A stretch of 64,000 nt of DNA from a virus. The stretch spans positions 1 through 64,000 of IMG/VR virus record IMGVR_UViG_3300025666_000003; one strand, written 5' to 3'. Positions 1,967 to 49,100 of the stretch are shown here, piece after piece. A program made the position numbers and the translations under genes. The notes beneath the pieces were generated by a model. It ran no database searches and had not been told where the DNA came from. It saw only the letters and a program-made list of their open reading frames with translations. Position 1 is the first letter of the stretch; each line of letters opens with the position of its first letter.

Positions 1967-1996
1967 TTTATTTAATAATTCAAAAATTCATATATA

Positions 1997-2338: not shown

Positions 2339-2421
2339 ATTTAGCTATATAATGCCATAAATATTTATTATTTATTAAAATATATTCGTATTATTTACAC
2401 ATTTAACGTTTATTTGTGTAA

Positions 2422-2667: not shown

Positions 2668-2675
2668 TAATCCTA

Positions 2676-2707
2676 CTAGTGTGAGCAACTAGAATTAAAT
2701 CAGCTCA
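2676..2707 (+). promoter_or_regulatory. Candidate H-type mRNA pseudoknot in the leader of the 2743 gene
   Basis: S1 CTAGT(2676-80)/ACTAG(2688-92); S2 TGAGC(2682-86)/GCTCA(2703-07). Confidence 0.5.
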
Positions 2708-2742
2708 AAATCAATTATTTATTAATCCAAAAACCAATTAGT

Positions 2743-3237: not shown

Positions 3238-3249
3238 TCTATTCTATAA

Positions 3250-3281
3250 ACAGGAGGTGATAATTCATCTCCTGTATTTTT
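3250..3281 (+). terminator. Rho-independent terminator
   Basis: ACAGGAGGTGA-TAAT-TCATCTCCTGT followed by ATTTTT. Confidence 0.75.
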
Positions 3282-3300
3282 AATTCTAAAAAATAATGTC

Positions 3301-3807: not shown

Positions 3808-4201
3808 GAAAAAAATATGTGATGGTTGCCAAAAAGAGCAATACATTTGGAAAAATCAGTCTGGAATAAGGTACTGTAAACAATGCTGGAGTCGTCATAA
3901 GCCTAGTGTTAATAAAAAACCAAATACAGTACCTATCCAGGCTGTTTCTCAAAAGAAAAAGAAGAAAGATGAAGAATACAGTAAACTAAGAAGAAGATTT
4001 TTAGAAGAACATTCTTTATGTAAAATTAAAATAACCTCTCGGTGTAGTAATACTGCAACTGATGTACACCACATGTATTCTGGTAATGATAGAATGACTT
4101 TTTATTTAATCCAGAGTACATGGTTACCGGTGTGTAGAAATTGTCATAACTGGATTCATGAGAATCCAAAAAAAGCAAGAATTATGAATTATTTAAAATA
4201 A
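3797..4201 (+). CDS. Zn-finger/HNH-type (NinG-like) nuclease
   Basis: N-terminal CDGC...CKQC; C-terminal DVHH...VCRNCHNWIH. Confidence 0.7.
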   Translation: MKVKKKICDGCQKEQYIWKNQSGIRYCKQCWSRHKPSVNKKPNTVPIQAVSQKKKKKDEEYSKLRRRFLEEHSLCKIKITSRCSNTATDVHHMYSGNDRMTFYLIQSTWLPVCRNCHNWIHENPKKARIMNYLK

Positions 4202-4210
4202 CTGATTACA

Positions 4211-30400: not shown

Positions 30401-33391
30401 TCTATCTGTATCTCTGGATAAAGTAACTAAAGCTCTTCGTTGTTTAAATAAATTAGCTAATTCTGCAGCTATTGGTGAGTTAGTTTTATTTCTTTCTGCT
30501 ATTTTATTTAGTTCTGTATATATTTTTCCTGTTTCCTCGTAATACTCATCACTATAACCAATTATAAAATTTCTATCAGTAAACTTTTGTACTGCTTCTT
30601 GAAAAGCTTCTGCATTATCTTCCATGGTTATACCCGCTCCACCTATTTTAGTGTTAACATAAATTTCAAAATCTCTTTGTACTTTTTTTTCATTAGTGTT
30701 AAACTCCATGAATTTAGCAGATTCTTCTTTATACTTTAATCTAACTAAAACTTTACCTAGTGTTTCAGTATCTTTAACAACACCATCTTCAGTATAATAA
30801 CTAAATAATTCATTATATTCTTTTTCAGCAGCTAAGTATTCTGTATTTACATGATCCTCAATGTCTGCCATATTAACATTTTTATAATTGTTCATGGTTC
30901 TTAAGGCAGTCTGTCTTTCAATAAAAGCATCTTGTGAATCAGTTTGACTTACTGTAAAAAGTTTTCCTGTAACTGGATGTTCTACTTGATTAGCTGTTCT
31001 CCATATTTTTCTTACTTCATAGAATTCTTTTTTAAATTCTCTATGCATGTAATCTTCTTCAAATTTCCATATAGCTTCTAAAGCGGTTCTTTCAGCATCT
31101 TTATCTCCATCTATTCTAGCTTTTTCTAAGTCATACTTAAGTTTACCTTGATCAGATCTCCATCCATTACCAAATCTGTTTAAGAATGTGTATACTTCAA
31201 ATGTGTCAAAGGATCCATCTTCTTTTTGAATTGGTACAGTATCTGTAAAAAGCAACATATCAGATAATTGCCTTGTATTATTTGGATTGTAGCCTAATTG
31301 TTTTAAGAAAGGAAGAATATCAGATGCAATATCATTAGCTTGATTATAACTACGTCCTTCAGTTTCTGATAGATTGCTTTTAATAAATCTTGCAAAGCTT
31401 CCAGTAATTGGATCATTCATACTCATATATGGAGTTATCATTGATGTGAATAAACCAATGTCACCTCTCCTACCTTCTATAAAGTCTTTAATTGTATTTC
31501 TGTTAAGTCTTTTAGAATAAAACTCTTGTGCAACATCTTTAAGATACCTAAAGCTTTTGGGAGTATTTGGCAAACCCATTCCTTTTGGTGTTAATACTGC
31601 GTTTTCATTTTCTAAAATTGCTTTTACAGCATTATCAATCTGATCTTGTGTGTACCCATCATTTTTTAAAATACTTTTAATTCTTTCTTCAGCATATTGT
31701 TCAACTGCTTCACTCATATATTCAGTATGTTCAGTAAAGAATTCAGTTGTAAAATCTAACATTAAATTATTAGTAATTTTCTGTGCATTAGAAACTATAC
31801 CTTCTATACTAATAATCTTTTGTGTAAATGGATTCTCTGTTTCAAGATCCATAGCATCTTTTATATCACTAAGAAGTAATGCTTGTCTATTTAAAAATTC
31901 TTGATAATAAATTACTTTACTTATACCAGCTTGAGTTAAATAAGATTTCTTAGTCTTCATTGTTTTAACAATATTTTCTATTTGACTAGAAAATACTTTT
32001 GTTTGTGTTAAACTATTTACAAGAGCAATTGATCTTTCTTTAAATTCTTTTTGCTGAAGCTCCATAGCTAGAGCCATTTTTTCTTCATTAGTTTTACCTA
32101 CAGTTTCATAATCTTTTAGATATTCTTTTATATTAGTAAGAATACTGCTACTACTAGCTAATTCTTCTCTTAATTTCCATGGTGTATTCCTTAACCTAGC
32201 AATCTCTGCCATATTTTCAGAATATGCTCTGTTAAGAGCTTCTTCTAATTTTAATTTATCTTTATCAAAGTTAAGTGTTTCATAAAGTTTTTGCCATTCT
32301 AATTTTACTACTTCTTTAAATTCAGCAAAATCTTTAGGTTTGAGGTTAAGATTTTCTACTATGAAATCTTCACTTACCATCATATTAGCTAATTCTTCTA
32401 AAGTAGTGTTCTCATTAAGTTTGCCTAATACAACTTTTTTTGTTGTCAACTTTCTGATTATTTGCTTAATAGCATAAAGAAGGTTTTTTATAAATTTTTT
32501 AAATCCTTCGTCAGTTTTTGTTAATTCATTTACTTTATGAGTTGCTTTATATTCTAAAGCTGTTACTAAGACTTCCTCCTTAAATCTATCTGATTGATTT
32601 TGACCATATGGATCACTTTCATCAAATTTAAGATTTGGATATCCAGCTTTTACTTGATTAATTACAGTTTCACCATTCTTAGTAAGTGTTAATTGAGTAT
32701 AAAGATTATCAAAAAGTTTTCTATCAGATATAGATATAGCATTAATAAATGGATGCGCAAACTCATGAAGTACATTGGCTACTGTCATTTGACCATCAAC
32801 AAAGTATACTACATTATTATAAAAGAATGCTGGCTGATTATTATATGGTGTAGGTGTATTAGCTAATAATGCTACTGCTTCTTCTGTACTAACCTGATCA
32901 TAGTTTATACCAAAAGCTGCTTTAAACTTATCACCTAGAGCTTTTGCTATTTCATTTGCTTTAAAATTATCAATGCTACTAGCATCATTATTCATTATAT
33001 TCCAATATTGAAATACTTTTTCATTATATAGTTCTCTATTAGTATAATCATAAGTTTTTCCTCCTAACTCCATTCGTCTCATGTCAAGATCTTGAGCTAA
33101 TACATCCATTCTTTTTATTTCAACTTCTTCTGCAAATGAAGTAGCTTCATTCAATTCTAAAATTACTTCATTATCATAGTAATCAGTAATTAAATTTTCT
33201 GAAATAATAATTTGAGCTTCTAAAAGATCTGTTGTACCTACATATCCAAAAGAAAGTACTTTTTCTCTGTAAAGTTTATTCACTGCTGCAGCTACTGATT
33301 TGGCTTTTTTTGGAGATGCACCCATACCTTCAGTTGCTAATTCCTGAATATCATTATACAAACTATCTTTAATTTTTATTCTACAAGGCAT
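27407..33391 (-). CDS. Giant virion/ejection-type protein with a zincin motif, a LysM-like insert and a C-terminal TM segment
   Basis: HEFAH (32753-32767); LysM-like segment 28256-28381; hydrophobic GVFIALLSYATYFLFG; adjacent to the RNAP gene. Confidence 0.8.
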   Translation of the reverse strand: MPCRIKIKDSLYNDIQELATEGMGASPKKAKSVAAAVNKLYREKVLSFGYVGTTDLLEAQIIISENLITDYYDNEVILELNEATSFAEEVEIKRMDVLAQDLDMRRMELGGKTYDYTNRELYNEKVFQYWNIMNNDASSIDNFKANEIAKALGDKFKAAFGINYDQVSTEEAVALLANTPTPYNNQPAFFYNNVVYFVDGQMTVANVLHEFAHPFINAISISDRKLFDNLYTQLTLTKNGETVINQVKAGYPNLKFDESDPYGQNQSDRFKEEVLVTALEYKATHKVNELTKTDEGFKKFIKNLLYAIKQIIRKLTTKKVVLGKLNENTTLEELANMMVSEDFIVENLNLKPKDFAEFKEVVKLEWQKLYETLNFDKDKLKLEEALNRAYSENMAEIARLRNTPWKLREELASSSSILTNIKEYLKDYETVGKTNEEKMALAMELQQKEFKERSIALVNSLTQTKVFSSQIENIVKTMKTKKSYLTQAGISKVIYYQEFLNRQALLLSDIKDAMDLETENPFTQKIISIEGIVSNAQKITNNLMLDFTTEFFTEHTEYMSEAVEQYAEERIKSILKNDGYTQDQIDNAVKAILENENAVLTPKGMGLPNTPKSFRYLKDVAQEFYSKRLNRNTIKDFIEGRRGDIGLFTSMITPYMSMNDPITGSFARFIKSNLSETEGRSYNQANDIASDILPFLKQLGYNPNNTRQLSDMLLFTDTVPIQKEDGSFDTFEVYTFLNRFGNGWRSDQGKLKYDLEKARIDGDKDAERTALEAIWKFEEDYMHREFKKEFYEVRKIWRTANQVEHPVTGKLFTVSQTDSQDAFIERQTALRTMNNYKNVNMADIEDHVNTEYLAAEKEYNELFSYYTEDGVVKDTETLGKVLVRLKYKEESAKFMEFNTNEKKVQRDFEIYVNTKIGGAGITMEDNAEAFQEAVQKFTDRNFIIGYSDEYYEETGKIYTELNKIAERNKTNSPIAAELANLFKQRRALVTLSRDTDRRPNGQKLSPNQIRILHQIELDINKLKGEFDSKTGLSAADMDILESYETRIKEKTNPLTEAEKKEYINLVNVQNTLGMSKEDVTRQRQLYKELSQLRDMMATEYYVDSFNFAKRFVEFSSDEIDQINQENAGDWINNPLLIDQALADPTFKEWFDVNHYQMMLWDQVQKKKVPTWVRTSVWTLTLPSEEKFFKKTTLINPIDGKPIEVRGVPNKKYTFSKVKDKYYTIPPGSDKNDYVGTILDNRFQPLPRKYEPGNPNSAVDAKYINKEYENLEARNDAEGVAQFKLLTSITDNFLKLQVNKPNRSKLYLDFPRFRQRSTLELVQSGKTKESFATKFDNLKSVIKSMVQKDAADYEQNNEGHNFDANQQLEPTDMRGNPIDKVPVRGLYKLKKGDTSTDVLASLYNYLYSLNEQETLMELEPIAKSITKTLNENKNTVIKDMNKISSNMSKAANKVVNINLAENKRAGAVDYLVNKVFYGQGNTQFQVDNPMAVKVTNLLMGNASRAFIALDLTSAMKNRYGMMFQSIVEGVGGKYYNLKSLASGRIWSAKAVAQLIATGVYSRGPKSLELQLMEHFDPITGKTRKDFGKSSSRTFMKDFFDATWMYDFRRLTDLEAGLQVFGAMMHDKYVTQVMPNGETRSVKYINAWKLNENQQLTLLEGIDPEWSYQKINHTYIEGDTWELISERYAVPVEELKKKNKIALEDLDYGDEIIISSAKKFQDFKFKIQGIGKKLNGQMDNLVDDAQANKYLGYRLFTFYKRFAVPMFLNRFQYSSTGKGFWSDVTTTGEHTYDWDMGDLSKGYWISALQAMKKVVWDAEKYYPLMTPEEKTAVRKVFAEGVFIALLSYATYFLFGYDSGDEDRFAKMRERQDKYGMFGYMGNHILYQLIAVRTENEAFIPIPGLGLGDWLEFTNNTTIAFGPTLGNYAKIIGDLLLMLSGDEKAIYSQDAGPYEWQKEGRYKIWNHFGATIGLKGKNYSPIKAIKSIETFENSKLQ

Positions 33392-33424: not shown

Positions 33425-36400
33425 TTAATCGCATTCTGAACCTGATCTTTTTGTTGGAGGTCTACCTGCAGGTTTATTTTCTCCAAATAAGTTAAGTTGT
33501 GTTCCTGGATCAATTGGTCTAAGTTCTTCTCTTACTTCCATAAGTAATTTTGGAAACTCCGTACCCCATCTACTTTTATCTTGAGTATGTGTAAGAACTT
33601 TATTACCTGTAGCTAAAAGTATTTGTAAAGCATTTGGATTTTGTTCAAATGATGATTTTAGTAAATCTTTCATTATTCTAGAAGAGTTATCATCCCAATT
33701 AGTAATATTTAAGCTAGGAATAGTTTTTCCTATTCTTTTAGCTTCTGCTCCAGTAGCAGTAGATAATTTTCTTAAAAATTCATTTCTTTCATTAACAATA
33801 TCTTCTCTAGTTTTTCCTTTAGGGGGAATTTGAAGTGAACTAAAATAATCAGTATATAATAATTTTTCAGCTTGAAAAGCCCCTTCTACGGTTTTAAAAT
33901 TTTCAATTATACCTAAAGCAACTGGCACACTAGATGTTGGTACAAAAGGTCTATTAGCAAAATTACTTAACTCAGCATTTTCGTTAGTACCCGCATATAT
34001 ATTAACAGTCTCACTAGTTGGTTTACTCCAAGTTCCTAATAATTGACCATCTACTGTTACTTCAGAATAATTATATCCCTTAGCTTCCATATTAGCATAA
34101 AGTCTTTTTTCTCCAGTATTATAAGTGCTAGAATCTGTATAAGCTTTATTATCAGTAAGTATTGTTGCTCCAGCTTCTACAGCCTTGATAGCTTCTTTTA
34201 TAGTTCTATCTTGTTGAGTTTTTTGTTGTAACGCAGTACCTCTTTTACCTCCAATAGATACAAATATTACATCATTAGTTGAGTAGTTGCCTGTATTAGC
34301 AAATTCTCCTGCTTGTTGTCTATAAGTTTCTGTAGAACTTCCAGTAATACCTTCACCAAACCCTATATATTGAGTAGCAATACTTGCTTTAATAATTGCT
34401 TTTTTATCAGCAGATTGTATAGGAGTTACAGTAAATAAATTTTTCTTACTAAGCTCACTAGCTGGTTGAGCAAATGTTTTATTCACGGCTTGACTTTTTT
34501 CAGCATTGTGTCTAAGTGTAATACTAAATCTTTTAGACTTGTTACCTTCTGCGTCTATACCATGTTTATAATTAATTTGACCATCTTTACCCATTATTAA
34601 ACCTAGGCCAGACTTCATTGGTATTTCATACCTTTTTCCTCTACCATTAAGAATCATAGTTCTTTCGTCACCAAAACTAATAGTTACAACAGATGGATTA
34701 AGTTTACCCTTATTGTTTAATATTGGTTCATTATCAGTATGGAATCCTATTTTTTGACTACCATCCTTATATTCATTTATAAGAGCCATGTCAAAGTAAC
34801 CTTTTTCAAAACCTAATTCTGTTTCTATTTTAGAAATTAACCTTTGAAGTTCAGGACTTCCTATATTAGCAGATCTTGTAGTTCCAGAATAAGAATAAGC
34901 AGTATCAGAAAAATACATACTTCTCCTACCTTTACCAAACTTATCACTGGCCTTATGCTCAGTCTCGTAAGTATTCTTATATAATTTTTCTATAAAATTA
35001 AATATTTGTTCAGACTCTTCTTTATTAAATACTTGCTTAGTAAATACTTCAGCATCTTCAACATCTACTTTTGTTAAACCTTTTGTATTTACTAAACCAT
35101 TTGTTAATAGTGTAGCTATATCCAGATCTTCAATTACTTGATTTCCCTGTAATATTTTTTCATTTTTATTATTAAATTGTATTCCCGTAGATAAATCAAC
35201 ATTATCAATGTATACTTCTCCTGTAGCTTGATCAACAAGACTATATAGTTTACTTTTAGGAATTAACATCCATTTAGATGATTGAGGAGCTCTTTCATTT
35301 TTACCAGTATTGGTGTTATAAAATGCTTTAAATATAGTTGACGATGTAAAGAATGCTTTAGGTAAACTTCCATTACTTTTTCTTACATACTCATTGAACG
35401 ATTGAACATCTGTATCATTAATAATTTTACTTCCTCTAACAAGCTGAGTTGGTTCTATAGGTGTTGTAAAAATGCTTTCAGATTCTAATACCTTATCTTC
35501 AGGATCCTCTGATCCTTCATATCTATTGACAGCTGCTGAATCTATTAACTCATATAGTATTTGAATACCTTTATTTGATTCACTAAAGCCTGGATTTCTA
35601 TGCTTTGCCCCATATTCAAATGACCATCCTTCTAATTTACTCCAGTCTTCTATTTCTTCATCAGACATTTTTGAAAAATCAATTAGCCTTTTATCAGTCA
35701 CTTTAACTAATAGCATTTGACCTTCACCAATTTTGTCTCCTGACCAAAATTTAATTATTTGTCCAGGTTTTGCTTTAGCCCAATATGCATATGCATCATT
35801 AGTGTAATATCTAGTAGTGGCTGTTCTTTCACCTTGTAAGATAGCTTCAAATGTATTATCTGATACTACGTCATCTCTTTTATTATCACCATACTGAAAT
35901 GACATGGTACCTTCTTTATCAGCTTTATTATAACCATTGTACTCTTCTTCAGATACTACGTAATCTTTATACTTATCTTTTGAAAGTAGTCTACCGTATA
36001 TAATTTCTAGTGTATTATCATTAAGTTGATTTTGCATAAAGCTATTAGATGCATCTTGCATAATATCTGTAAAATCTTGAAATGGTAAAGCTGCATTAAA
36101 TCCATTTTTACTATATCCTATACCATGTTGGTATAACATCACAAGTGGAAACATTTTAAATAATTTACTTATATATGCATTATCTTTTTTATCAGCTTTG
36201 GCATTACCAGTAGATACTTTTTTAATATTAACATCTGCTAATTCTTTTAAATTATGATAATAACTAGATGCCAAGTCCCCTTCTACTCTATTTTTATCTG
36301 CTAATGTAAGTACTTTATCATCACCAATAGTATCAGCAGGTGTAAGTTGTTGAAGTACAGGATACTTAACTTTCAAACTTGGAAAATCTTTTATAACATC

Positions 36401-39400
36401 AAGTATAGTCTGACTAAAAGAATATGTTTCCATTTGCATAAGAAACTTACGGTTAAATGCATTTATTAATGCTCTTTTAGTTAAAAATTCTTCATATGCA
36501 CGTTCAGGTGTTAAGCCACCTGCTTTGATTCGTTTATATTCTTTATTATCTTTTACTAATTCAATTGGATTTTTTAATTTTGTAATTGCTCTTTCTATAC
36601 TATATTTAAAGAAACTAGATTTTTTATTACGTATTCCTGATTCAGAAACAAAAGGATCATTTTCTTCTGTAAATGATGTCAAGCCTCTATTAGTGTATGC
36701 TTTTTCAGCAGTAGATGATCTAAGGTAATATCCATAATCGTAATCATCTGATAACATTCCTGGATTGATAGTTATAATTTCTTTTTCAGAATTAATTTCT
36801 ACTCCACCAGGTATGTTTTTTGTTGATGTATTAACTTTGTAACCTTTATATAAATCTGGATAATCAATTACTTCTCCTTTACTATTTACAAAGTTAGACA
36901 TGCGATTTTGATAGATGTAATTAACTACACCATTTTTAAATTCACGTATAAATTGACTAACAGCTTCTTGATCACTACCATATCTATCTGCTATTCTTGG
37001 TGACCCTAACTTGTCTAAGATAAACTTTGTTATTACAGAATTGTTTCTTAACTTAAATAATGGTTCAAGTAATTTAAGCACAAGTTCATTTTTATAAAAT
37101 GAGCTTAATATTGATTCATTAACTAATGCCAGTACTGTATCTGAATCTACTTTTGAATTAGTCATTAATTCTTCAAGACCTTGTATTTTTCCAACTAATT
37201 CTTGGGCTGTTTTAGATCTTGTAGTATCAGGATTTGCTAATCTTTTAAGTGAATTCAAACCTTTAATTTGCTTTTCAATTTCTAAGAAATGCATAAACGC
37301 AGCTATCTTTGTTTTTTCACTACCTTCACCTTTTACTATTTTATATAATTCATTTTTATTAAAAGTACCAATTCCAGCTTCTTCCATAGCTACACTTGCA
37401 CCTTGATAATATTTACTTGTAGAAACAGGACTTGATCTAAGCTTATAAATTTTATCTCCTTTTTCAGTAATTATAAGATTAATTATAGTATCCTCATTAT
37501 TTAATAGTTGCTCCATTTCTGCTTTTGTAGCAAATTCTGTATTCTTTTTACCTTTTTGATAATATTCTACAATTGATTTTCCTTCTAATACAGGAATTAA
37601 AGCTTTTAAATTTTCAGTATTTACTTTAGCTTCCATAGCTATTTTTTCTTTAGCAGACATTGATTCTGTTAAAGTTTGATCAGCGGCCATATATTTAATC
37701 AATGGATTAGCTATTACTTCTCCTCTTTGAGTAACAATTTCTTCGTAAGCACTGCTAAGCAATCTTTGTTTTTCTGCATACTTACGTACTAATGGATTGG
37801 ATACAAAGTAAATTGCATCTTTAGCTGGAACTCCAGCTTTAAATAAATAAAATAATACTGGTGCAAGTTCAGGATTAGCTTGAATATAAAATATCCAAGC
37901 ATCCGCTTCAACATCTACTAATCCATTTACTGACTCTGAAAATAGATCAGCTATTTTTTCTATACCATCTACTGAATATATATCAGATAATGAAATTACA
38001 GTTTGGTTTTTACTATTTGTTGTTGAGTTATGGCGAAGTTTTAAACGCATTTTATAATCCACATCTATATCAACATAACCATCTTCACTATATATTTGTG
38101 CTTTATAAGATGCTGGCATTTTTGCATCAATTTGATTTAATAATGGGTGCAATGCATTTTCAATTGCAGCAATACCAAGTACTTCTTTACCAATTAAATT
38201 TGCTGAATGCTTATCTAAATTAAAAGGTACTTCTAATGTTCTTGTTGGACTTATTACAATATCATTATTTTTTCCATCAATTCTTGGACCATCATAAACA
38301 TTTTCAAATTTATCAAATTCACTAACGTATTTTTGAAGATCCATAGCTATGGGTCTTAATGTATTTGTTCCTGTAGGTTTGGTAAGTTGTGCAAAGTTTG
38401 AAGGAAGCTCAACTATACCTTTAATAGCTTGGATTAAGTTATTTTCTAAAGCATTTTTCTGATTACGTATTATAACTGATATACCTTTTCCTTTATCTTC
38501 TTTTATTTTACTTATTTCTTTTTTTAATTCTTCATTAGTTACATTAGATGTAATAAACTTTCCACTTGCATCAATGCTTGGCATGAATGTAGTCATCTTA
38601 TCTACATCAAAATCAGATCCATTTTTAACTACGATCTCTGAAGGAAGTATAATTATATTACTTGCTGCTGGATCTAGGAATTCGTAGACTTCCATTGACT
38701 CAATAAATCCTAATGTTTGAGTAGGAATACGTACACCAGCTAATGTTACAGCTTTTCTATTTGAACCATCATCTTGATCTAACCAATTATCATCTTTGAT
38801 CATCTCATTAAGACGCTCCCTTGTTTCTATAACCTCACCATTTATATCTTTAAGATTTAATAAGTTTAGAAAGTCTCCTTGAAGTGCAATTGCAACCTTC
38901 ATTAGTTTAGTCTTACCATTTACTTGATGATAAAACGGAAGATTGTTACTTCCCAGGAATTTTTTAATATCAGCTTTTGAAGCTTTATCAAATTTCTGTC
39001 TTAAAACCCTATCCCATGTACCATTTGTAGTAGCACTAGACACCTGTACAAGTCCTTCACCTTTTACTTTTTGTTTGATTAATCTTTTTTCAATTAAAGA
39101 TATAATAGTTTTTTCAATTGTGTCGGCTTCAAGATGTAAAGACAAATCTATGTTAATCTTATTCTCTTGATTTACACCTATCATCTTTATTAGATGTTTA
39201 GGTACTGCTTTTCTGCCTAATTCTTTATGAATAACATTTACAAATCTATTTAAATCTCCAGTGTATGCTCCATACTTATATTCAAATCCAATATCATTAA
39301 GAAGTTCTATTGTTAAAATTTCTGTGTATTCATCTACAGCATCATCATAAGCTTTGACTTTTTGCTTATCTATACCTACTGGTACTTCACCATTATTATA

Positions 39401-42400
39401 TAAACTTTCAATAATAACTTTACGTAACTGAGTTGCAAAAATTGTTTTCTTTTTAAATTTATTTGGTACTTTAGTTACATCTTTAAGATATTCACCATAT
39501 ATTTTGTTTATTGTAAACTCTATATTATTTACAATATCTTTTTGTTCTTCGTTATCATATATTTTATCAGGAGAACCATCTTTTGTTATTCCAGATACTT
39601 TTGAACCAGACTCAAATACAACATATTGAATATCTTTTTCCATCATTTGCTTATGAAGATTATCCATATCTGATCCTTCACCAACCATAGTAGGAATAAG
39701 AGGCATTAATGAGAATTTATGCATTCCTGTTAAAGGTAGTAGTGCATCTGCTATAGGTCCGTAATACTGAAGTTTGTATACAGGAAAAAATTCTTTTATG
39801 TCTGAAGGATTAATTTCTCTGTTATGTATTATATCTTGAAATAAGTCTTCTTGTTCCGGACTCCATTGTTTAGATAACTTTTTTAACATTCTGTATGTAT
39901 CAAAAGTAATTAAACCTTGACCATCACCTTCTTCCATATTTTTATACTCATCTATATCTCTAGCTACTCTTGATTCAACTAAAGCTTTTACTAATTGAGG
40001 TTTAGTTGGATTTGAACCTAACTTAGATAATTCAATTTCATTTAATGCATCTTTAAGATCTTCTTTAGCAACTTTCTTAAATCTTATTGCATAGTCTTTT
40101 CTCCAAGCATTTGCTATTTCATCAATGTATATACTAGTTCTTTTAACATCTTCAAGTACAGCTGTATTTATTGTTCCATTGTATTTGATATTTTTGTATC
40201 TTGCATCAAGTGTAGTAGCATAACTACCTTTATTCCATACATTTTGTATAAAGTTTTGTGCTGAAATATCTGTTCTCACACCTAATCCTCCAGAAGTAAG
40301 ACCTGTATTTCTTTTATGTAGATGATCTTTAGCGTGATTATACTGAGCCATATCTCCATACAATAAACCTATTGTTTCAAAGTTATGTATGAATGAATTA
40401 TATACATAAGTTCTTACTAAAGCATCATCAATCTCAGCTTCTGTTAATTTATGTACAGCAAGTTTATTTCTAAGTTTTGGATCAATAAATCTATTTTTTC
40501 TAAGTATTGCTATAGAGTTTGTAGTTTGATTATCAAAATAATTTTTAGTGCTCTCTGCCATTTTAGCTTTAAGACTAGGGTTATTATTCAATGCTTCAAT
40601 AAGATCCGTTCCTTCTAGGTTGTAAATTTGATTTTTTATATTATTGTTTAATACATCATCAAAAGCTGTAAATAATTCACCAGCATAATATTCTTTACCA
40701 TCCCATTTCATTCTTCTATTATAGCCTTTATACTTTTTAAATTCTTCTGGATTTGCACGAAATCTTTTGAGTCTTTCAAACTCAGCAGCCATATAAGGTA
40801 ATATTATTTCTTCAAAAGCATAAGTTTCACCTGATCCATTCTTTAATAAAGATTCAAGATCTACATAAAGTTTACTTTGTTCTTGACTAATGGGTCCGTC
40901 AATACCACCTCTTATAACTATACCAAAAGAAGAAGATTTAGAGGCATGTCTAATAAATTCTTGAATACCTTCTTTAAGCATCAAATTCATTTCTTGTAAA
41001 AACTTACCATAGTAATCTAGACCTGTAGTAACAACTCCTTCTTGAATCTCTGCATTTTGTGTACCTGAATCAATAAATAATTCTAAACTTTTATCTTTTA
41101 ATTTATTAAATTGACCACCATCGTAAAAATTAAATAAGTTTTTAAGTATTTGAGATCTTTTTGTAAATGAATTAGTTGCCGGATTAAGATCTGACATGTG
41201 TTTAAATTCATCTTTAGTCCACAAGTCAGTAAGTTTTTTTGCTTTATTTAAAGCATACACTCTTCTACTTGCAGTTTGATCATCAATATGTTCGTATACA
41301 ACATTACCTTCTGGATTCAGTACACTAAAGTTTGCATATTGTGATCCATATTTACCATGTAAAATAGCTATACGTTCTATTTGTGTTCTTTCAGTTATTT
41401 CTTTACCAAAAAGTTCAGTTGATAAACCAGTTGATTTACTTAATTCAGCTACAGGATCTTTTTTAAAGATTTCAATTTGAGTTAACTTAAATTCTTCCTG
41501 CTTTGTAAGTTTATTATTTTCTGCTTTAGTTTGAAGTTGAAGTTCTAATGCAGAAAGATCTTTAATAATACTATATATGTATGGTAGACCGTAGTATTCA
41601 CTACGCATTTCTAACTCATTTTTAATTATTTTTAAGTCATCAAGATTCATTCCCAAGGCTCTTGCAAAAGCTAAACTTTTACTAACGTCAAAGGTTCCTT
41701 TTACAGTGCTTGCATCTTTAAATACATCAGTAACTTTTTGAAGATTTAATTTAGATTTATTATTATCTCTTGTGATAAATCTATTTTCTTCTATTGTTTG
41801 AGTTTTAAAGTTATCACTAAAGCTTCTTCTAAGAAGTCCTGTTTCATAACTTGCTTTAATAGGTTTTAATACATAACCATCTTCAGTATTAAATGCAGTA
41901 AGTTGCATATAAGAGGTTCTCTTTCTTTTGAAAGTTTGCCAAAATGCTGTAGTAATATCAAATTCTGTTTCATGATCAGCAGAATTTGGATTTGGAAGCT
42001 TATATTTAATTAACTGTTCTAATTCCGGAAAAGATTGCCAAAGTAATTTATTATTTAATATTTCATAAGCTTCAACAGGATCTTCAATTCCACCTATAGC
42101 TCTAACAACATTATCCCACATGCTACCATAGTTGACTAATTTTTTAAAACCTAATCTATTATAAACAAAATTTTTATTTTCTTTCTTATGAAGACTACCC
42201 AATACATAAGATACTTCATCTTCTGTACTTTCTTCTAATGATTTTTGACCAACACTTTTATCAGCTATTTGATCTGAATTATTTATTGATTCAGCATCTC
42301 CAACATAACTATCTTCATCTTCCTTTAATTCTTCATTAATTATAGTTTGTCTTTCATTGATAATTCTATAACTACTATTTTCAACAAGGTATGCTAATGA

Positions 42401-45400
42401 ACCATGCTTTTCATTACCAAAGTTTGTAATTACAGTTTGTAGTATTCTTATATCATCTTGTAACTTTGCTTGCTCAGCTGTAAGTATTTTAGTAGTTACA
42501 GGTTTCTTATTATATTCAAGAGCTTTGTATTTTGCTCCACCTTCAATATAGCTTGTATATTGTACAGTAGCATCTTGCATTGAATCAACTACTATTATTC
42601 CTACACGTTTCCCTTTACTGTTGGTTATAGATTCGTGACTATAGAAGTCTCCAATAATACTAATTCCATGATACATTTCACCTTTTAACCTGTCTCCTTT
42701 TTTTGAGCTTAAGTTAAGTTTGTTAAATTCATCAATTTGTGATCTAAGAAATACATACTTGTCATCTCCTGATTTTTCACTAGCAATCATAACAGCTGCT
42801 GCATTAGCTTTAAGTTCTGATAAAGTATTGATTGAATTAAAAGAAACATCTGTTATTTGCCCAAGCTCTTTTTTACGGTTTTCAAGTTGTTTTTCAAATC
42901 TTCCTTTAAGTATTTTAAATGCAATCTCTCTATTACTTATATTCTGCTCCGTTCCAAGAAACATTCTTTTCTTTTTCTTATTACTAAGAATCTCAATACT
43001 ACCTGCTTTACTACCTGGAGCATCTCCATTTTTAATTGCTAATTGATCAACCATTTCAGAAAGAGTTGAGTCAGCACTTTCAACAAATAAATCTGATTCT
43101 TCTTTATTTAAAGCATCTTCTTTTTTATTTTTTACTTGAGATATACCTCTGTCCATTTCATTAAACATGACATTGTCAATCAATGGAGTATACTTATTTA
43201 GTAGTTTTGGATTTTTACTAGAAAAATAAAGTGTATCAAACATCTCTTTAACTGATGAAATATCATAAAGATCTGTAATTACATCTTGTTTAGTTGTATT
43301 TTCAAATACACTTTTAATCCAATTTAGTATTCTTCTAAAGAGTGAATTTCTTTTTGGCCTACCTTTTTTAGCTTTTGGATTTTTAGAAAAAGTTCTGAAA
43401 TCTTCTGCAAGTTCTTCTTCAATATCATAGAAAGACATATCTTTCCATTTACCACCTTTACTTCTTATCTCTTTATATAGTGCAGTCTTTTCTGCTTTTG
43501 TCAAGAACAATTGTGAAAATGCATGCCAAGCTTCATGATACACATCTACCATGTTACCACCCGTATGCTCATTAATTCCTATCTTACCTAACTTACCACC
43601 TTCAAATAATGTAGACCCCGCACTAATAAACTCTGCATAAACATCAGAATTTACAATATTGGCCATTTGACCTAAAGAGATGAAATTTTGTAGTGGAGAT
43701 GTTTTCCACCAATCATCAGCACGTTTAATATCTTCAGATGTTATACCTAACTGATTAAGAATGGTTTTTCTTTTAAGTCCACTTTTTGTATCAAAACCAT
43801 CAAAAAGATCTCCTTCTGATGGATTAATAGTTCCTTCAGGATTAAGTTTTTCAGCGTCTGTAGTTTTAATCTTTTTTGCTTCAAGATCTTTCTTTTGTTC
43901 TTGATATAATTTTGTTCTTGGCTTTTCATTTAATGTGTAATCAGTTTCTTTAATAAAAGCTATTGCCACACCTTCACTATTATATACAGTAATTGTATCA
44001 GTAATATATTCAGTATCTGTTTCAATATCTTCGCTAACTAAAGTTACAGAATCATTAAGTTTTGGCATTACTTTTTTAACAGTTCCTTCATTTTTTTTAA
44101 ATTTTTTAATAATTGATGCAGATACAGGTTGACCTTCAGCATTAAGAATTGTAAATGAACCATATCCTTCACCTTCTGTATTGGTACCTGTGTTTCCAAT
44201 GTAGTTAACTTTAAAATCTTTTGTGTTATTTTCTTCTAGTTTAAGTTCGTTAACTAAATTATCTTTAAGTTCTCTTGTGTATGATCTAAAATTTTCAGAT
44301 TCAATTTCATTTTTTGCTTCATCAATTTCTTCAGTAATCCCTCCTGGTAATGCAAATTGCATGTAAGCATTAAATACTTCTTGAGTTTGGGATGTAGTAA
44401 AAATTTCAGCATGTGCTTTACGTAGTACATCATTAATATAGTCAGCTCTTACAAGTTTTCCATTTTGAAAATCAAAGTAACCTCCGTTAACTAAATCAGC
44501 TCTATAACGCATTCTTGTTGCACTAACTTGACCAACATTTTCAGCATTTGGATTTGTTACAGTTGTTGCAAACATTAAAGCATCTTTAATTTCTTTAAAA
44601 GCTGTTGCTGATGTTAAGTCAACAGGTTTAACATTTTTATCAATTGCACCACTTTTTTCTGCAACTATTTTAATTGAAAACTCATCAGTAGCTGGAATAT
44701 AAGACAATCTGTATCTTCTTATACTTCTTGCCATATTATTATGAATAAATTGCTCAGCAAAATTCATTTTTTCTTTTCCTGTAAGTTGTGAACTAGTTAA
44801 TGCACTTGCTATTTTTCCAGCAATTTCATCAGTCATACGTGGTCTATCAATAGTAAATTTCTTGTTGTCTATTGTAATAGTATGATATCCTTCAGGTCTT
44901 CCTTTTGATTCTACTGTTACTGATGTTAATGAACTATAAATATTTAACAACTCAGTTTCTGATAATCCAGATTCTGATAATGTATCTAAATACATAAACT
45001 TACCTGCTGCAAAACTTTGGATACCTTCATTAATTCCTGTTATTGGAACTAACTTAGCTTCTTTAGTTTTTATAAATTGCTGAGTAAAATTATAAAGATC
45101 TTTTAATTCTTTTTGTTGTTCCTTATCAATTGCATCAATAATATTTTGTTCAGTTTGTTCAGTTTCTTTAGCATACTCTGTTAAAGTCATATCAAATGAA
45201 GCTGCTAACTTATTTGCAATCTCTGCTGGAGTAGTCACTTGTGATTCTTGATTATAAAGACCTTTTGCATTATATCTAGCTCCTTCTTTTCTTACTGTTC
45301 TTGTAAACTGATATACATAACTACCATCTTCAGTAATTTTTCCATCAGTATTAAACTTAACTGGATTACCATTTGCATCAACAATAATCATAGCAACTCT

Positions 45401-46165
45401 TTCATTTAAAGGAGTTACATTTTTATTTTGTTTACCTTTACCCTCAAGAATATAACCTCTTTCAACAGTTCTTTTAGTATGTGCATCTAAATGTTCTGCT
45501 GGAATATCTTTAACAAGTATAGGTTTAAGTTTAAGCACTTGATCTTCATATATAACATCATTTAATCCAGGAACACTTTTAGGATCAACTTGATTACTAA
45601 TATTTCTTATTGTATTAAATATTCTTCTTCTAGTTTCACTTAAAAGTTCTTGTGTGAAGTCTGTTTTATCTTCAGGATTTAATGGATTATATTCTTGCAT
45701 TGTTGTTGCAAGAGGACTAAATGGTCTAAGTCTTAATTCAACAAATTCATTAAGTTTTTCTTCATCAATTACTTCTTTTGGTGTAAGAATTTCTTCTTTT
45801 TTTTCATTAACCAATTTCTCGAATTCTTCTGGAGATAAATCTGGTCTGAATGTTCTCAATGTATTAACAAATCCGTCATCTGGATTTCTAAAAGTTTGAT
45901 TTAATTTTCTTAAATCAGAACCTTCAAGAACAGCATCTTGAGTATCTTGCTGCATAGAAGCTATTGTTAAAAGAGCAGGTAATTGTTGTACAAATTTTGC
46001 AGCATTAGCTTCATTTGTTTTATTTGCTATCTTATCAAACATTATGTTCATATAATTATCAACATTAAAAGGAATATTTTCCTTCATGCCAATCTTTATA
46101 CTTTTATAAGCGTGTTTGTATAATTTTTCTACCTGGTCTACTGTTAATGCACAAGTTATTTTCAT
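33425..46165 (-). CDS. crAss-like virion RNA polymerase polyprotein (zincin, RNAP core, C-terminal ASCH-like/AlkB-like/unknown/NADAR modules)
   Basis: GSDFDVDK catalytic motif (38600-38614) preceded by RIPTQ; DGQG, HKFS and TQLRK motifs; HEAWH (43523-43537). Confidence 0.88.
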   Translation of the reverse strand: MKITCALTVDQVEKLYKHAYKSIKIGMKENIPFNVDNYMNIMFDKIANKTNEANAAKFVQQLPALLTIASMQQDTQDAVLEGSDLRKLNQTFRNPDDGFVNTLRTFRPDLSPEEFEKLVNEKKEEILTPKEVIDEEKLNEFVELRLRPFSPLATTMQEYNPLNPEDKTDFTQELLSETRRRIFNTIRNISNQVDPKSVPGLNDVIYEDQVLKLKPILVKDIPAEHLDAHTKRTVERGYILEGKGKQNKNVTPLNERVAMIIVDANGNPVKFNTDGKITEDGSYVYQFTRTVRKEGARYNAKGLYNQESQVTTPAEIANKLAASFDMTLTEYAKETEQTEQNIIDAIDKEQQKELKDLYNFTQQFIKTKEAKLVPITGINEGIQSFAAGKFMYLDTLSESGLSETELLNIYSSLTSVTVESKGRPEGYHTITIDNKKFTIDRPRMTDEIAGKIASALTSSQLTGKEKMNFAEQFIHNNMARSIRRYRLSYIPATDEFSIKIVAEKSGAIDKNVKPVDLTSATAFKEIKDALMFATTVTNPNAENVGQVSATRMRYRADLVNGGYFDFQNGKLVRADYINDVLRKAHAEIFTTSQTQEVFNAYMQFALPGGITEEIDEAKNEIESENFRSYTRELKDNLVNELKLEENNTKDFKVNYIGNTGTNTEGEGYGSFTILNAEGQPVSASIIKKFKKNEGTVKKVMPKLNDSVTLVSEDIETDTEYITDTITVYNSEGVAIAFIKETDYTLNEKPRTKLYQEQKKDLEAKKIKTTDAEKLNPEGTINPSEGDLFDGFDTKSGLKRKTILNQLGITSEDIKRADDWWKTSPLQNFISLGQMANIVNSDVYAEFISAGSTLFEGGKLGKIGINEHTGGNMVDVYHEAWHAFSQLFLTKAEKTALYKEIRSKGGKWKDMSFYDIEEELAEDFRTFSKNPKAKKGRPKRNSLFRRILNWIKSVFENTTKQDVITDLYDISSVKEMFDTLYFSSKNPKLLNKYTPLIDNVMFNEMDRGISQVKNKKEDALNKEESDLFVESADSTLSEMVDQLAIKNGDAPGSKAGSIEILSNKKKKRMFLGTEQNISNREIAFKILKGRFEKQLENRKKELGQITDVSFNSINTLSELKANAAAVMIASEKSGDDKYVFLRSQIDEFNKLNLSSKKGDRLKGEMYHGISIIGDFYSHESITNSKGKRVGIIVVDSMQDATVQYTSYIEGGAKYKALEYNKKPVTTKILTAEQAKLQDDIRILQTVITNFGNEKHGSLAYLVENSSYRIINERQTIINEELKEDEDSYVGDAESINNSDQIADKSVGQKSLEESTEDEVSYVLGSLHKKENKNFVYNRLGFKKLVNYGSMWDNVVRAIGGIEDPVEAYEILNNKLLWQSFPELEQLIKYKLPNPNSADHETEFDITTAFWQTFKRKRTSYMQLTAFNTEDGYVLKPIKASYETGLLRRSFSDNFKTQTIEENRFITRDNNKSKLNLQKVTDVFKDASTVKGTFDVSKSLAFARALGMNLDDLKIIKNELEMRSEYYGLPYIYSIIKDLSALELQLQTKAENNKLTKQEEFKLTQIEIFKKDPVAELSKSTGLSTELFGKEITERTQIERIAILHGKYGSQYANFSVLNPEGNVVYEHIDDQTASRRVYALNKAKKLTDLWTKDEFKHMSDLNPATNSFTKRSQILKNLFNFYDGGQFNKLKDKSLELFIDSGTQNAEIQEGVVTTGLDYYGKFLQEMNLMLKEGIQEFIRHASKSSSFGIVIRGGIDGPISQEQSKLYVDLESLLKNGSGETYAFEEIILPYMAAEFERLKRFRANPEEFKKYKGYNRRMKWDGKEYYAGELFTAFDDVLNNNIKNQIYNLEGTDLIEALNNNPSLKAKMAESTKNYFDNQTTNSIAILRKNRFIDPKLRNKLAVHKLTEAEIDDALVRTYVYNSFIHNFETIGLLYGDMAQYNHAKDHLHKRNTGLTSGGLGVRTDISAQNFIQNVWNKGSYATTLDARYKNIKYNGTINTAVLEDVKRTSIYIDEIANAWRKDYAIRFKKVAKEDLKDALNEIELSKLGSNPTKPQLVKALVESRVARDIDEYKNMEEGDGQGLITFDTYRMLKKLSKQWSPEQEDLFQDIIHNREINPSDIKEFFPVYKLQYYGPIADALLPLTGMHKFSLMPLIPTMVGEGSDMDNLHKQMMEKDIQYVVFESGSKVSGITKDGSPDKIYDNEEQKDIVNNIEFTINKIYGEYLKDVTKVPNKFKKKTIFATQLRKVIIESLYNNGEVPVGIDKQKVKAYDDAVDEYTEILTIELLNDIGFEYKYGAYTGDLNRFVNVIHKELGRKAVPKHLIKMIGVNQENKINIDLSLHLEADTIEKTIISLIEKRLIKQKVKGEGLVQVSSATTNGTWDRVLRQKFDKASKADIKKFLGSNNLPFYHQVNGKTKLMKVAIALQGDFLNLLNLKDINGEVIETRERLNEMIKDDNWLDQDDGSNRKAVTLAGVRIPTQTLGFIESMEVYEFLDPAASNIIILPSEIVVKNGSDFDVDKMTTFMPSIDASGKFITSNVTNEELKKEISKIKEDKGKGISVIIRNQKNALENNLIQAIKGIVELPSNFAQLTKPTGTNTLRPIAMDLQKYVSEFDKFENVYDGPRIDGKNNDIVISPTRTLEVPFNLDKHSANLIGKEVLGIAAIENALHPLLNQIDAKMPASYKAQIYSEDGYVDIDVDYKMRLKLRHNSTTNSKNQTVISLSDIYSVDGIEKIADLFSESVNGLVDVEADAWIFYIQANPELAPVLFYLFKAGVPAKDAIYFVSNPLVRKYAEKQRLLSSAYEEIVTQRGEVIANPLIKYMAADQTLTESMSAKEKIAMEAKVNTENLKALIPVLEGKSIVEYYQKGKKNTEFATKAEMEQLLNNEDTIINLIITEKGDKIYKLRSSPVSTSKYYQGASVAMEEAGIGTFNKNELYKIVKGEGSEKTKIAAFMHFLEIEKQIKGLNSLKRLANPDTTRSKTAQELVGKIQGLEELMTNSKVDSDTVLALVNESILSSFYKNELVLKLLEPLFKLRNNSVITKFILDKLGSPRIADRYGSDQEAVSQFIREFKNGVVNYIYQNRMSNFVNSKGEVIDYPDLYKGYKVNTSTKNIPGGVEINSEKEIITINPGMLSDDYDYGYYLRSSTAEKAYTNRGLTSFTEENDPFVSESGIRNKKSSFFKYSIERAITKLKNPIELVKDNKEYKRIKAGGLTPERAYEEFLTKRALINAFNRKFLMQMETYSFSQTILDVIKDFPSLKVKYPVLQQLTPADTIGDDKVLTLADKNRVEGDLASSYYHNLKELADVNIKKVSTGNAKADKKDNAYISKLFKMFPLVMLYQHGIGYSKNGFNAALPFQDFTDIMQDASNSFMQNQLNDNTLEIIYGRLLSKDKYKDYVVSEEEYNGYNKADKEGTMSFQYGDNKRDDVVSDNTFEAILQGERTATTRYYTNDAYAYWAKAKPGQIIKFWSGDKIGEGQMLLVKVTDKRLIDFSKMSDEEIEDWSKLEGWSFEYGAKHRNPGFSESNKGIQILYELIDSAAVNRYEGSEDPEDKVLESESIFTTPIEPTQLVRGSKIINDTDVQSFNEYVRKSNGSLPKAFFTSSTIFKAFYNTNTGKNERAPQSSKWMLIPKSKLYSLVDQATGEVYIDNVDLSTGIQFNNKNEKILQGNQVIEDLDIATLLTNGLVNTKGLTKVDVEDAEVFTKQVFNKEESEQIFNFIEKLYKNTYETEHKASDKFGKGRRSMYFSDTAYSYSGTTRSANIGSPELQRLISKIETELGFEKGYFDMALINEYKDGSQKIGFHTDNEPILNNKGKLNPSVVTISFGDERTMILNGRGKRYEIPMKSGLGLIMGKDGQINYKHGIDAEGNKSKRFSITLRHNAEKSQAVNKTFAQPASELSKKNLFTVTPIQSADKKAIIKASIATQYIGFGEGITGSSTETYRQQAGEFANTGNYSTNDVIFVSIGGKRGTALQQKTQQDRTIKEAIKAVEAGATILTDNKAYTDSSTYNTGEKRLYANMEAKGYNYSEVTVDGQLLGTWSKPTSETVNIYAGTNENAELSNFANRPFVPTSSVPVALGIIENFKTVEGAFQAEKLLYTDYFSSLQIPPKGKTREDIVNERNEFLRKLSTATGAEAKRIGKTIPSLNITNWDDNSSRIMKDLLKSSFEQNPNALQILLATGNKVLTHTQDKSRWGTEFPKLLMEVREELRPIDPGTQLNLFGENKPAGRPPTKRSGSECD
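33515..34010 (-). other. NADAR domain within the RNAP polyprotein
   Basis: LSNFA..PF, F.TVE.AFQAEK, EAKRIGK, WD....IMKDLL..SFEQNP....LLATG...L.H, WG...LMEVREEL. Confidence 0.85.
34010..34467. repeat. 14-nt direct repeat CTCACTAG(T/C)TGGTT at 34010-34023 and 34454-34467, bounding one domain
   Basis: 13/14 identity; encodes the P(T/A)SE linkers. Confidence 0.6.
34505..35065 (-). other. AlkB-like 2OG-Fe(II) dioxygenase domain within the RNAP polyprotein
   Basis: YSYSG, LINEYKDG..KIGFHTDNE (HxD), SVVTISFG, YKHGI (distal His), RFSITLR (RxxxxxR). Confidence 0.85.
35545..35910 (-). other. ASCH-like domain within the RNAP polyprotein
   Basis: FEAILQGERTATTR...KPGQII.F...VKVT...EGWS matches the ASCH GxKxxxxR-type signature. 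Confidence 0.7.
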
Positions 46166-46166
46166 A

Positions 46167-49100
46167 TTAAGGACATTCTAAATCGTTAAATAAATCTTCT
46201 TCTATATCATCAATACTAGATGAGTCTGCTACGTCATTGATAGGATCTTTAGCTATTCCACCAGTTTCTGCAAATAATTTTACTGAGTCTGATGTTTGTT
46301 TAATTAATTGCTTGTCACTTTCATTAAGTGGTTTAGATGTTGATATAGCTTTTGTTTTAAATATTGCCACTGTTGTAAAATATTCATTAGGGTTATTAAA
46401 TGTTTTGCTTTCTCCTGTACTTAATAAAGTTACTGTTACTGAATAAGAAGCACTGGACGCTTGCCCATCATCATCATATTCTGGAACTCCTTGAATTTTT
46501 GTAACTACAACTGTATCATACTGTTCTGCAAATAATTCTTCACCTTCAAAGATATCATTTTTAACTATAAGTTGAGTCCCTTCTTCAAGATTATCTAAAG
46601 CAATTTCAATATTAGTTCCTTCATCTAATTCTGCTGTTCTTGCTGTAAGTAAACCAGACATTTTGTTTACTGTCTCTGCGTCTATCTTACCCTCTTGAAA
46701 AGCAATAAGTAACTCACCTCTCAATTGATTAACATCATTTGTTTTAGCAATCATTACCTTAACTTCAGCAAGAGTTATTTTTTTAACTGCAGGTTCTGTA
46801 GATTTTATTTCTTCTTTTGGTTTAGTCTCTTTTTTCTGTTTTCTAGGATTAATTTCTGTTGATCCTTCGGTAGGCTCATCATCACTAAGTTCATCACTAC
46901 TTGTTTCTCCTTTATTGTTTTCATAATTTCCTGTATATAATAATATATTAATAATTTCTAAGTTTTCTAAAGCTTTTCCTATAAGAAGCTTTGGTTGTTT
47001 AAAGAATAATTTACTCATATCAACAATAGCATCTGTAACGTATAAATCTAGAATAAGTTTCTCTTGATCTGTAAGTGGAGCAAATCTGCCAGGTGAATGT
47101 AACTTATTAAGTGCATCTGCAATTTCAGGACTCATGTTTTTATTTAAAACATTATTTATAACACTGAGTGTAATGTAATCATCTTCTGCTAATACTTTTT
47201 CTATATCTTCTTGTTCTATTAACTCATCTTTTGTATTTACTTCAGATATTTCTTGATAATTAATTTTATTTCTCTCTACTTCTACAGCTACAATAAGTGC
47301 TTGATTTTTAATACGTTGTTTAGAATTATTTGCAGGAATAAGTGAAATAATATTACCATCTTTATCTGTAACAATATCATAACTTTGATTATTAACAATA
47401 ACTTTCTTTTCACTTTTTAACTGAACTGTATACTTAGAAGCAATATCTTCTCTTTCCTCAGGAAGATTTAAACCAGCTTCTTCAATTGTAGTTTCTCCTG
47501 TAACATCTGTTAAATATAATGTCTTAGTTGGAGAATATAATTCATACCTAGCAGATTTCTTTTTTCTATTAACTTTCTTTAATCTATATGCTTTTCCTTC
47601 AAAGTAAACATTTTGACCAATCATTTCATCTAATGTAGGATACTCTACTTCCCCAATAATTTCAACATTAGTTTCAGGAACTTGATCACTATCTTGAGCA
47701 ACAGTTTCAGTTAATGCATCAGCTACTTCTGCAGGGAGTTCTTCTTTTTCGTCAATAAGAACTTCTTCTTGTATAGGAATTTTTGTATTAACTTTATCTA
47801 TAAGATCTTGACTTGGGTTTAATTCAAACCATGCTGGTGTATCTCTATTTGTAAGGTTTTCATTTATACTACTTGATTCAATTTTACCAGTGTTAATGTT
47901 AACTTTAGTAAGTAAAGGCATTAGATTTATAGTTGCCTCTACGCCTATCATATTAAATAGTAAATTTTTGTATGCTGTTTGTTGTAATTCGTAAGCTTCA
48001 GTCTTAGAATTTTGTGGATAAACACCACCAGTTTTAGTAAAATGTGACCATTTTGTATCCGCACCTGTTTTAAGATCTACAATATGAAATTGACCAAATT
48101 TATCTACAAGTAGTAAATCTATCTCCCCTGCTATTCTTACATTTTTATCATAAAGTATAAGTCCTTCTGCTGCTATGTAATACGTTCCTTCTTTTATATC
48201 TTTTCTTAATTTAACTAAAGGACCTTTGTTAAAAGTATTATCAAATGCTTCTTGAGTTATAAATGCCCCGTGTATTTTTGAATCCCATATAAATGGTTTA
48301 TCAACGTCCATGAAATAATCTCTAACTAATCCATCTATGTATGTACCTGCATTTCTTTCTTCTCTGTAAGTAGCTTCATTTACATCTTTAGTAAGTGTTG
48401 CTTCAGCATCTTCTTTTGCTAAAGGAATTGTTTTTTCTAAGTCAAGTATTTGTTTACGTATTTCTGCAATACTTTCAGGAGTGCTGCTCTCTAATTTTTC
48501 TTCTTCAAGTATTTCATTTTCTTGACTTTCAATTTGCTGATAAATACGATCAATTTGAATTTGATCAATCTTTTTAGCTTTAAGTCTAGCTTCAATAACT
48601 TCAGCTCTTTCAGCCATTACATCAAATGATATACGTGGAAGTTCATTTGTTCTTGAATAAAGCAAATTCATAAAGTCAACTGCTGTTTCACCAGAACCCA
48701 TTGTAAGTTCATAAGCATTTAATACTTTGTCAAGTGCACCATATGCATATGGTTTTTCTTTTAAATCTTCTAGGCTTCTAGTTACTCTAGAGAATGGCTC
48801 ATGATTAATTAAATATGCTTCTTTTGTCTTTCTTATATTTTCATTAAGCTTTTTTATTCTTTCAACTTTTGCAATAGCATCTTGCATTTCTTGAGTTCTA
48901 GCTATACTTTGTTTGTATGTTAAGTATCTAGATAATTCTCCTAATACTTCAGTATATTCTGCAAACATTAATCTATCTTCATCAGTTTGCTTTTCTTTAC
49001 TTTCAATATCTGTAATAACTTTTTGATAACGTTTAATATAATTTTTAATAGTTGCTTCACTCATTTCTGAAGACTCAAGGATTTTACCATCAATAGCAAT

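Follow-up and report, generated by a model that had tools for sequence, protein, structure and literature searches.

What would a phage gain from ending its virion RNA polymerase (RNAP) in a series of unrelated small modules? The question is raised by a single open reading frame (ORF), P0001, in the IMG/VR virus record IMGVR_UViG_3300025666_000003. The window analyzed here, 64,000 nucleotides in total, is the first 64 kb of this one 100,107-bp virus record, the completeness of which was estimated at 84% by CheckV. Judged from sequence comparison, P0001 is a crAss-type virion RNAP with a modular tail. Its last ~840 residues (after ~3410) hold an ASCH module, a module termed U1, an AlkB module, a module termed U2, and a NADAR module, in that order, and these five autonomous modules are flanked by the conserved body of the polymerase on one side and by a conserved C-terminal peptide with a cysteine on the other (Table 1). 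Comparison with relatives shows that the modules of the tail are exchangeable and shuffled, in the manner of polyvalent proteins.

The identity of the carrier was established from its core. In tblastn searches, residues 1523–3322 of P0001 matched crAss-like RNAPs, including phi14:2 g066, which is annotated as "Catalytic RNA polymerase subunit"; in a phage collection, the matching part was ~1855–2540. The alignment with phi14:2 gp66 extends over ~680 residues (BLASTP E 4e-16) and places GSDFDVDKM of P0001 over GSDFDIDKM. On the strength of this homology and of the DFDxD motif, P0001 is assigned to the crAss-type virion RNAP family. It is the middle of three consecutive giant ORFs (2255, 4246, and 1994 aa), and crAss-type portal, large terminase (TerL), and major capsid (MCP) genes were found in the same record. 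Both features are shared with phi14:2 and crAss001, in which the homologous DFDxD-containing proteins, phi14:2 gp66 and crAss001 gp50 (with gp47 and gp49), likewise come from the middle of three giant cargo genes. A preliminary description of the window, made from the letters alone, had held that the same ORF continues past the RNAP core into the tail and that crAss-like RNAPs of this type are packaged in virions. The ORF of 4246 aa with its gp66-like core agrees with the first point, and the second is supported by mass spectrometry, which identified phi14:2 g065–g067 and crAss001 gp47, gp49, and gp50 as virion proteins. These proteins are believed to leave the virion in a partly unfolded state, either before the DNA or together with it, and crAss001 is estimated to carry ~6 copies of each per virion. 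However, phi14:2 gp66 comprises 2180 aa and ends without such a tail, whereas P0001 has ~840 residues of modules after its body.

To place the modules in context, 259 related proteins were fetched from large protein collections, and the five modules were mapped onto them; the tail served as the query, so module frequencies are skewed toward proteins that share a module. The AlkB module matched the Pfam family 2OG-FeII_Oxy_2 (PF13532) with 70.9 bits (cut-off 31.2) over profile positions 6–194 of 194, and it scored 70.5 bits in a genome-wide profile search. The Fe(II) triad (H3809, D3811, and H3868) and the 2-oxoglutarate-binding R3879-FSITL-R3885 (RxSxTxR) are intact, just as had been read from the sequence at the outset (HxD/H/RxxxxxR). 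The HxD aligns with that of human ALKBH2, and the catalytic motif is kept in 14/14 relatives. Profile and motifs together place the module in the AlkB family, and demethylation of 1-methyladenine (m1A) and 3-methylcytosine (m3C) in DNA or RNA is predicted.

The NADAR module matched Pfam PF08719 at residues 4061–4204 with 50.3 bits (cut-off 35.1), scored 46.5 bits in the genome-wide profile search, and matched YbiA (2b3w) and NADAR (8bau) in the PDB. The catalytic residues E4094 and K4101 are intact within VEGAFQAEK, 7 residues apart, and the required Glu/Lys pairs of E. coli C7 NADAR (E88/K95) and T4 AdfN (E36/K43) have the same spacing; 102 of 114 relatives keep this motif. NADARs differ at the third catalytic position, where YbiA has Glu, DarT1-linked NADARs have Asp, and phage NADARs have His; HMMER places T4192, then H4193, on the Glu of YbiA. 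The preliminary description had linked NADAR proteins to DarT1 antitoxin activity. The superfamily and the Glu/Lys pair of the module stand, but the Asp of DarT1-linked antitoxins is missing; with T4192-H4193 in its place, the module is therefore not a DarG1-type antitoxin by sequence and looks more like the phage type. Additionally, its context is a phage RNAP and not a neighboring DarT1 gene, as is found for DarT1-linked antitoxins. In vitro, every NADAR subtype tested freed guanine in DNA of ADP-ribose, and T4 AdfN (gp30.3) counters DarTG1 (PMC11825919). The P0001 module resembles T4 AdfN in its fold, in its Glu/Lys pair 7 residues apart, and in being phage-encoded, and it resembles phage NADARs generally in having a His at or beside the third catalytic position. 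In contrast, AdfN is free-standing and made after infection, whereas the P0001 module is fused to a probably pre-packaged protein, and its similarity to Phage_30_3 is weak (E 0.013). Free-standing NADAR genes occur in other crAss-like phages, at 47.8% identity in cr126_1 and with a fused DprA-like domain in cr130_1.

The ASCH segment taken alone scored 19.1 bits against Pfam PF04266 (E 0.0021), below the cut-off of 21.2, and its sequence profiles A3 and A5 found no match in the PDB. Its identity was settled by structure search alone, which returned the ASCH (PUA-like beta-barrel) fold, and its motif is kept in 23/23 relatives. Confirmation of each domain by profile or structure, as the preliminary description had suggested, thus succeeded above the Pfam cut-offs for AlkB and NADAR, whereas for ASCH it came from the fold and not from the profile; all three are present, within essentially the boundaries first proposed. 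The ASCH module is most like YqfB, an N4-acetylcytidine amidohydrolase. Compared with E. coli YqfB (PDB 9kyf), it is 16% identical, has Arg where the YqfB motif has Lys, and is embedded in a giant protein. Because the ASCH family also includes RNA binders and a ribonuclease (ZmASCH), the reading as an amidohydrolase is not secure.

The two modules initially listed as unknown domains proved to be real. Since each recurs by itself in other proteins (U1 in 27/259 relatives, U2 in 196/259), both are taken to be autonomous modules on the basis of these matches. Neither U1 nor U2 had a family match in Pfam or NCBIfam. U1 has invariant F, Y, N, T, G, E, P, and W positions and an invariant NVDL.TG. 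In the ESM Atlas, it yielded sub-threshold leads only, to ART-PolyVal and PARP clusters (0.85); structure matches to a two-domain ASCH+U1 model came from the ASCH part. As a query against viral contigs, the single ASCH+U1 segment found no relatives, but the alignments A3 and A4 did. In the relative P0008, an ART-PolyVal domain is followed directly by U1 (residues 3389–3645), and this order, along with the weak Atlas leads, hints that U1 may act together with ADP-ribosyltransferases.

U2 is the commonest module and is up to 87% identical between proteins, with 12 invariant, mostly polar positions, and it deserves structural and biochemical study. Its structure was predicted at a predicted local distance difference test (pLDDT) score of 90.6, and the model has no clear structural match in the PDB or BFVD. 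A 14-nt direct repeat brackets it exactly (34010–34023 and 34454–34467; 13/14 identical, 444 nt apart; 0.01 expected by chance) and encodes KPTSE and QPASE. In P0086 (2752–3030) and P0091 (3632–3901), an ASCH module is nested inside U2, in a loop near U2 position ~54. P0031, P0146, and P0151 carry other inserts at the same loop.

A comparison of tail composition across relatives, also suggested at the outset, was run and brought out what the preliminary description had missed, namely that tails differ and modules are shuffled. P0005, P0007, P0009, P0022, P0046, and P0048 are collinear with P0001 residues 1–3409 at 32–42% identity, yet their tails differ: P0007 carries U2-NADAR, P0022 carries U1-U2, and P0005 carries U2...NADAR...U1. 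All five modules together were found in no other of the 259 relatives. Where modules co-occur, U2 precedes NADAR in 60 cases and follows it in 3, while U1 precedes U2 in 8 and follows it in 10, and modules occur on both sides of the polymerase core. The AlkB module of P0001 is 80% identical to that of P0004, a protein whose body does not align, and its U2 and the U2 of P0008 share 86% identity, although the two bodies are 34% identical. The same slots in relatives hold ART-PolyVal, cpYpsA (SLOG), Kinase-PolyVal, a RecD/Pif1-type (SF1) helicase, a zeta-toxin/AAA_33 kinase, DUF7831, and inteins. A (Q/K/E)P(T/S/A) linker was present in 29% of 427 border windows compared with 1.5% of 2135 random windows (~19-fold). 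In P0001, it occurs only three times (3571, 3900, and 4048), each time at a tail border. Linker conservation is claimed for the peptide only, as codons at 23 QP[ST] sites in related loci showed no clear departure from background usage. Phages appear to rebuild the module set by swapping whole modules in frame with one another, as would be expected of a counter-defense kit.

The distribution of cysteines bears on whether the tail belongs to the packaged protein. The three giant ORFs contain 4 cysteines in 8495 residues, whereas the rest of the genome would predict 109 (P ~3e-41), and each of the four is located at an end turned toward the next protein. This terminal-cysteine pattern is also present in phi14:2 g067, g066, and g065 and in crAss001 gp47, gp50, and gp49, although gp47 is on the opposite strand. 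Among giant relatives (n = 175), a cysteine falls within the final 8 residues of 157, and 81 are free of cysteine in their interior. In cyanopodophage A4, cryo-electron microscopy revealed a disulfide from Cys1715 of one ejection protein to Cys5 of the next (gp27–gp26; PMC12002296), and crAss001 virions use disulfides elsewhere. The pattern suggests an end-to-end, probably disulfide, link between the giant cargo proteins, comparable with gp27–gp26 in A4. The variable modules lie between a conserved body and a conserved functional C-terminus, an arrangement that favors a tail retained in the mature packaged protein.

From homologues and the literature, we infer that this tail is packaged, what its substrates would be, and that it would act beside the polymerase. 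If this crAss-type polymerase travels in the virion and is ejected along with the genome, the tail modules would be in the cell from time zero, held beside the enzyme that must read the incoming DNA. Relatives of the three enzymes remove groups at base-pairing positions, which would here correspond to N4-acyl-C, m1A/m3C, and N2-ADP-ribosyl-G (N2-ADPr-G). Such base lesions arise mainly in single-stranded nucleic acid, as exposed by a transcribing polymerase. The account that we favor, with confidence slightly above even, is that ASCH, AlkB, and NADAR free the template or the nascent RNA of base adducts, inflicted by the host or of environmental origin, by which early transcription would otherwise be blocked. 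A more elaborate form of this account is offered tentatively, and we regard it as rather doubtful: the tail would be a hot-swappable, pre-loaded "eraser" array in which tethered ASCH, AlkB, and NADAR strip acyl, methyl, and ADP-ribosyl groups as the RNAP opens the DNA, conferring immunity to DNA-modifying defenses before any phage gene is expressed. U2 would then be a new nucleotide- or nucleic-acid-binding partner, mostly beside NADAR, and new kits would arise through in-frame recombination at the (Q/K/E)P(T/S/A) linkers.

Several points weigh against the clearing of base adducts by the tail. The characterized homologues, phi14:2 gp66 and crAss001 gp50, lack this tail. An eraser kit would cover three of the five modules, leaving out U1 and the most widespread one, U2. 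The NADAR module has no Asp at the third position and so departs from the DarT1-linked antitoxins (BC4488 / DarG1), and in one study NADAR activity in vitro was accompanied by no protection in vivo for YbiA and the T4 NADAR. The other activities known for ASCH domains weaken the amidohydrolase identity. Furthermore, repair of the whole genome may be beyond the handful of polymerase copies that a virion carries; with so few, local action beside the polymerase makes more sense.

The main rival to this account sees the polymerase as a mere delivery vehicle, with the modules as independent injected effectors that act on host RNA, tRNA, nucleotides, or NAD-derived signals for takeover, perhaps after being freed at the linkers, and not on the phage template. 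The kinases, ADP-ribosyltransferases, zeta-toxin-like kinase, and helicases that relatives hold in the same slots would be host-directed in the polyvalent-protein model, many relatives have modules N-terminal of the core so that position relative to the polymerase is not fixed, and P0001 combines an HExxH motif with conserved linkers. Nevertheless, AlkB, NADAR, and a YqfB-like ASCH all remove base adducts, which fits the protection of nucleic acid better than attack, and the conserved terminal cysteine beyond the tail suggests that the tail stays in the mature chain; we therefore consider the vehicle explanation unlikely. Housekeeping repair of chemical damage, such as alkylation, gained outside the cell and with no link to host immunity would explain the intact AlkB active site. 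Replicase polyproteins of plant RNA viruses (Flexiviridae) contain AlkB domains that presumably keep the nucleic acid readable, and they offer an analogy for such a role. It is made quite improbable, however, by the rapid turnover and shuffling of modules, which are typical of conflict systems, and by the substrates of NADAR, which are enzymatic ADP-ribosylations and not spontaneous damage.

Two further explanations seem very improbable to us. NADAR, perhaps with U2, could be an antidote to or regulator of ADP-ribosyltransferases of the phage itself or of competing phages, given that ART-PolyVal and NADAR occur in one protein in the relatives P0068 and P0080 and that a YarT-YbiA toxin-antitoxin pair exists. 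The 100-kb record, however, yielded no ART-PolyVal or Macro match, where the record is 84% complete and the ART-PolyVal control search matched 0/14 control genomes. Alternatively, the modules could be in-frame cassettes, selfish or neutral, that are spread through recombination at linkers and bring the phage no benefit. The direct repeat around U2, the nesting of ASCH within U2 in P0086 and P0091, and the far greater similarity of the modules than of their carriers would all be in keeping with such spread. But the retention of catalytic motifs reported above for AlkB, NADAR, and ASCH and the invariant, mostly polar positions of U2 speak against this explanation, and the frames are open, with no endonuclease-like or intein signature.

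The proposed protection of early transcription by a delivered tail would combine known kinds of components, namely polyvalent proteins, the crAss virion RNAP, and phage NADAR counter-defense. P0001 resembles polyvalent proteins (Iyer et al. 2017, PMC5512222) in being very large and in having several unrelated enzymatic domains, the sets of which are shuffled and vary between relatives; delivery with the DNA would be a further likeness, which for P0001 is deduced from homologues. The relatives P0008 and P0027 carry the signature ART-PolyVal and Kinase-PolyVal domains, whereas a Pfam scan of P0001 itself gave no ART-PolyVal, Kinase-PolyVal, or MPTase-PolyVal at E up to 1. That paper makes no mention of NADAR, AlkB, ASCH, or crAss-like phages, and the carrier here is a crAss-type two-barrel RNAP. 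The Crassvirales review and Yutin et al. 2021 call the giant proteins only "large, multidomain proteins", and full-text literature searches (crAss-like with NADAR or with AlkB; polyvalent with crAssphage) returned no paper on these fusions. The virion RNAP of phage N4 (Schitoviridae) is also giant (~3500 aa), packaged in the capsid, and ejected, and it transcribes early genes; its core, however, is of the unrelated T7-like single-subunit type. The replicases of Flexiviridae share with P0001 the fusion of an AlkB demethylase to a polymerase-containing viral protein, but they are RNA-dependent RNA polymerases of eukaryotic viruses and are made after entry, whereas P0001 is a phage DNA-dependent RNAP that is probably delivered ready-made.

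The crAss-like phages rank with the most abundant phages of gut and marine samples. If the tail is injected and active, these phages would bring counter-defense enzymes into the cell within the first-acting enzyme, which would carry the concept of polyvalent proteins over to the crAss virion polymerase and give NADAR-type anti-DarT activity a delivery route independent of prior gene expression. The shuffled variants, which number in the hundreds, form a natural catalogue of candidate anti-defense modules, including the conserved U1 and U2.

Table 1. Features of P0001 and of the adjoining giant ORFs in the window; residue n of P0001 starts at window coordinate 46165-3(n-1).
Feature	Residues	Window coordinates	Strand	Remarks
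Whole ORF P0001, assigned as crAss-type virion RNAP with modular tail		33425..46165	-	4246 aa
Conserved body	1-3409	35939..46165	-	collinear with relatives
HEAWH (HExxH), zincin-like motif	877-881	43523..43537	-	without Pfam family
Catalytic DFDVD motif of two-barrel RNAP	2518-2522	38600..38614	-	aligned with DFDID of phi14:2 gp66
ASCH module	~3413-3545	35531..35929	-	conserved G-E-R-T-A-T-T-R (3445-3452) and WSKLEGW (3508-3514)
U1	~3575-3668	35162..35443	-	small alpha+beta module, EPTQ linker before it
AlkB-type Fe(II)/2-oxoglutarate dioxygenase module	~3683-3898	34472..35119	-	Pfam core 3710-3885
U2	~3905-4052	34010..34453	-	highly conserved alpha/beta module, glycine-rich loop SIGGKRG
NADAR module	~4057-4215	33521..33997	-	E4094, K4101; T4192-H4193 at Glu/Asp/His site
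C-terminal peptide, 31 residues	4216-4246	33428..33520	-	ends ..SECD; Cys4245 is one of two cysteines in P0001
ORF A (2255 aa), Cys2254	2254	46173-46175		..LECP
P0001, Cys5	5	46151-46153		MKITC
P0001, Cys4245	4245	33431-33433		..SECD
P0287 (1994 aa), Cys3	3	33383-33385		MPC

Some smaller features of the locus were also recorded. In the C-terminal peptide, QLNLF lies just past NADAR (window 33485–33499), and the pattern with which this peptide ends (..P-x-T-x-x-[DE]-C-x) is shared by closer relatives. A second HExxH zincin-like motif, HEFAH, is located at residue 209 of the next giant protein, P0287 (window 32753–32767), and is without a Pfam match. Cysteine avoidance reaches beyond the three giant proteins: ORFs of 1158, 769, and 1520 aa downstream of the structural genes (genome 52924–56400, 62121–64430, and 64433–68995, minus strand) have zero cysteines. 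An 839-aa ORF with no PHROG match (genome 79792–82311, minus strand) contrasts with the cargo proteins in holding 61 cysteines (7.3%).

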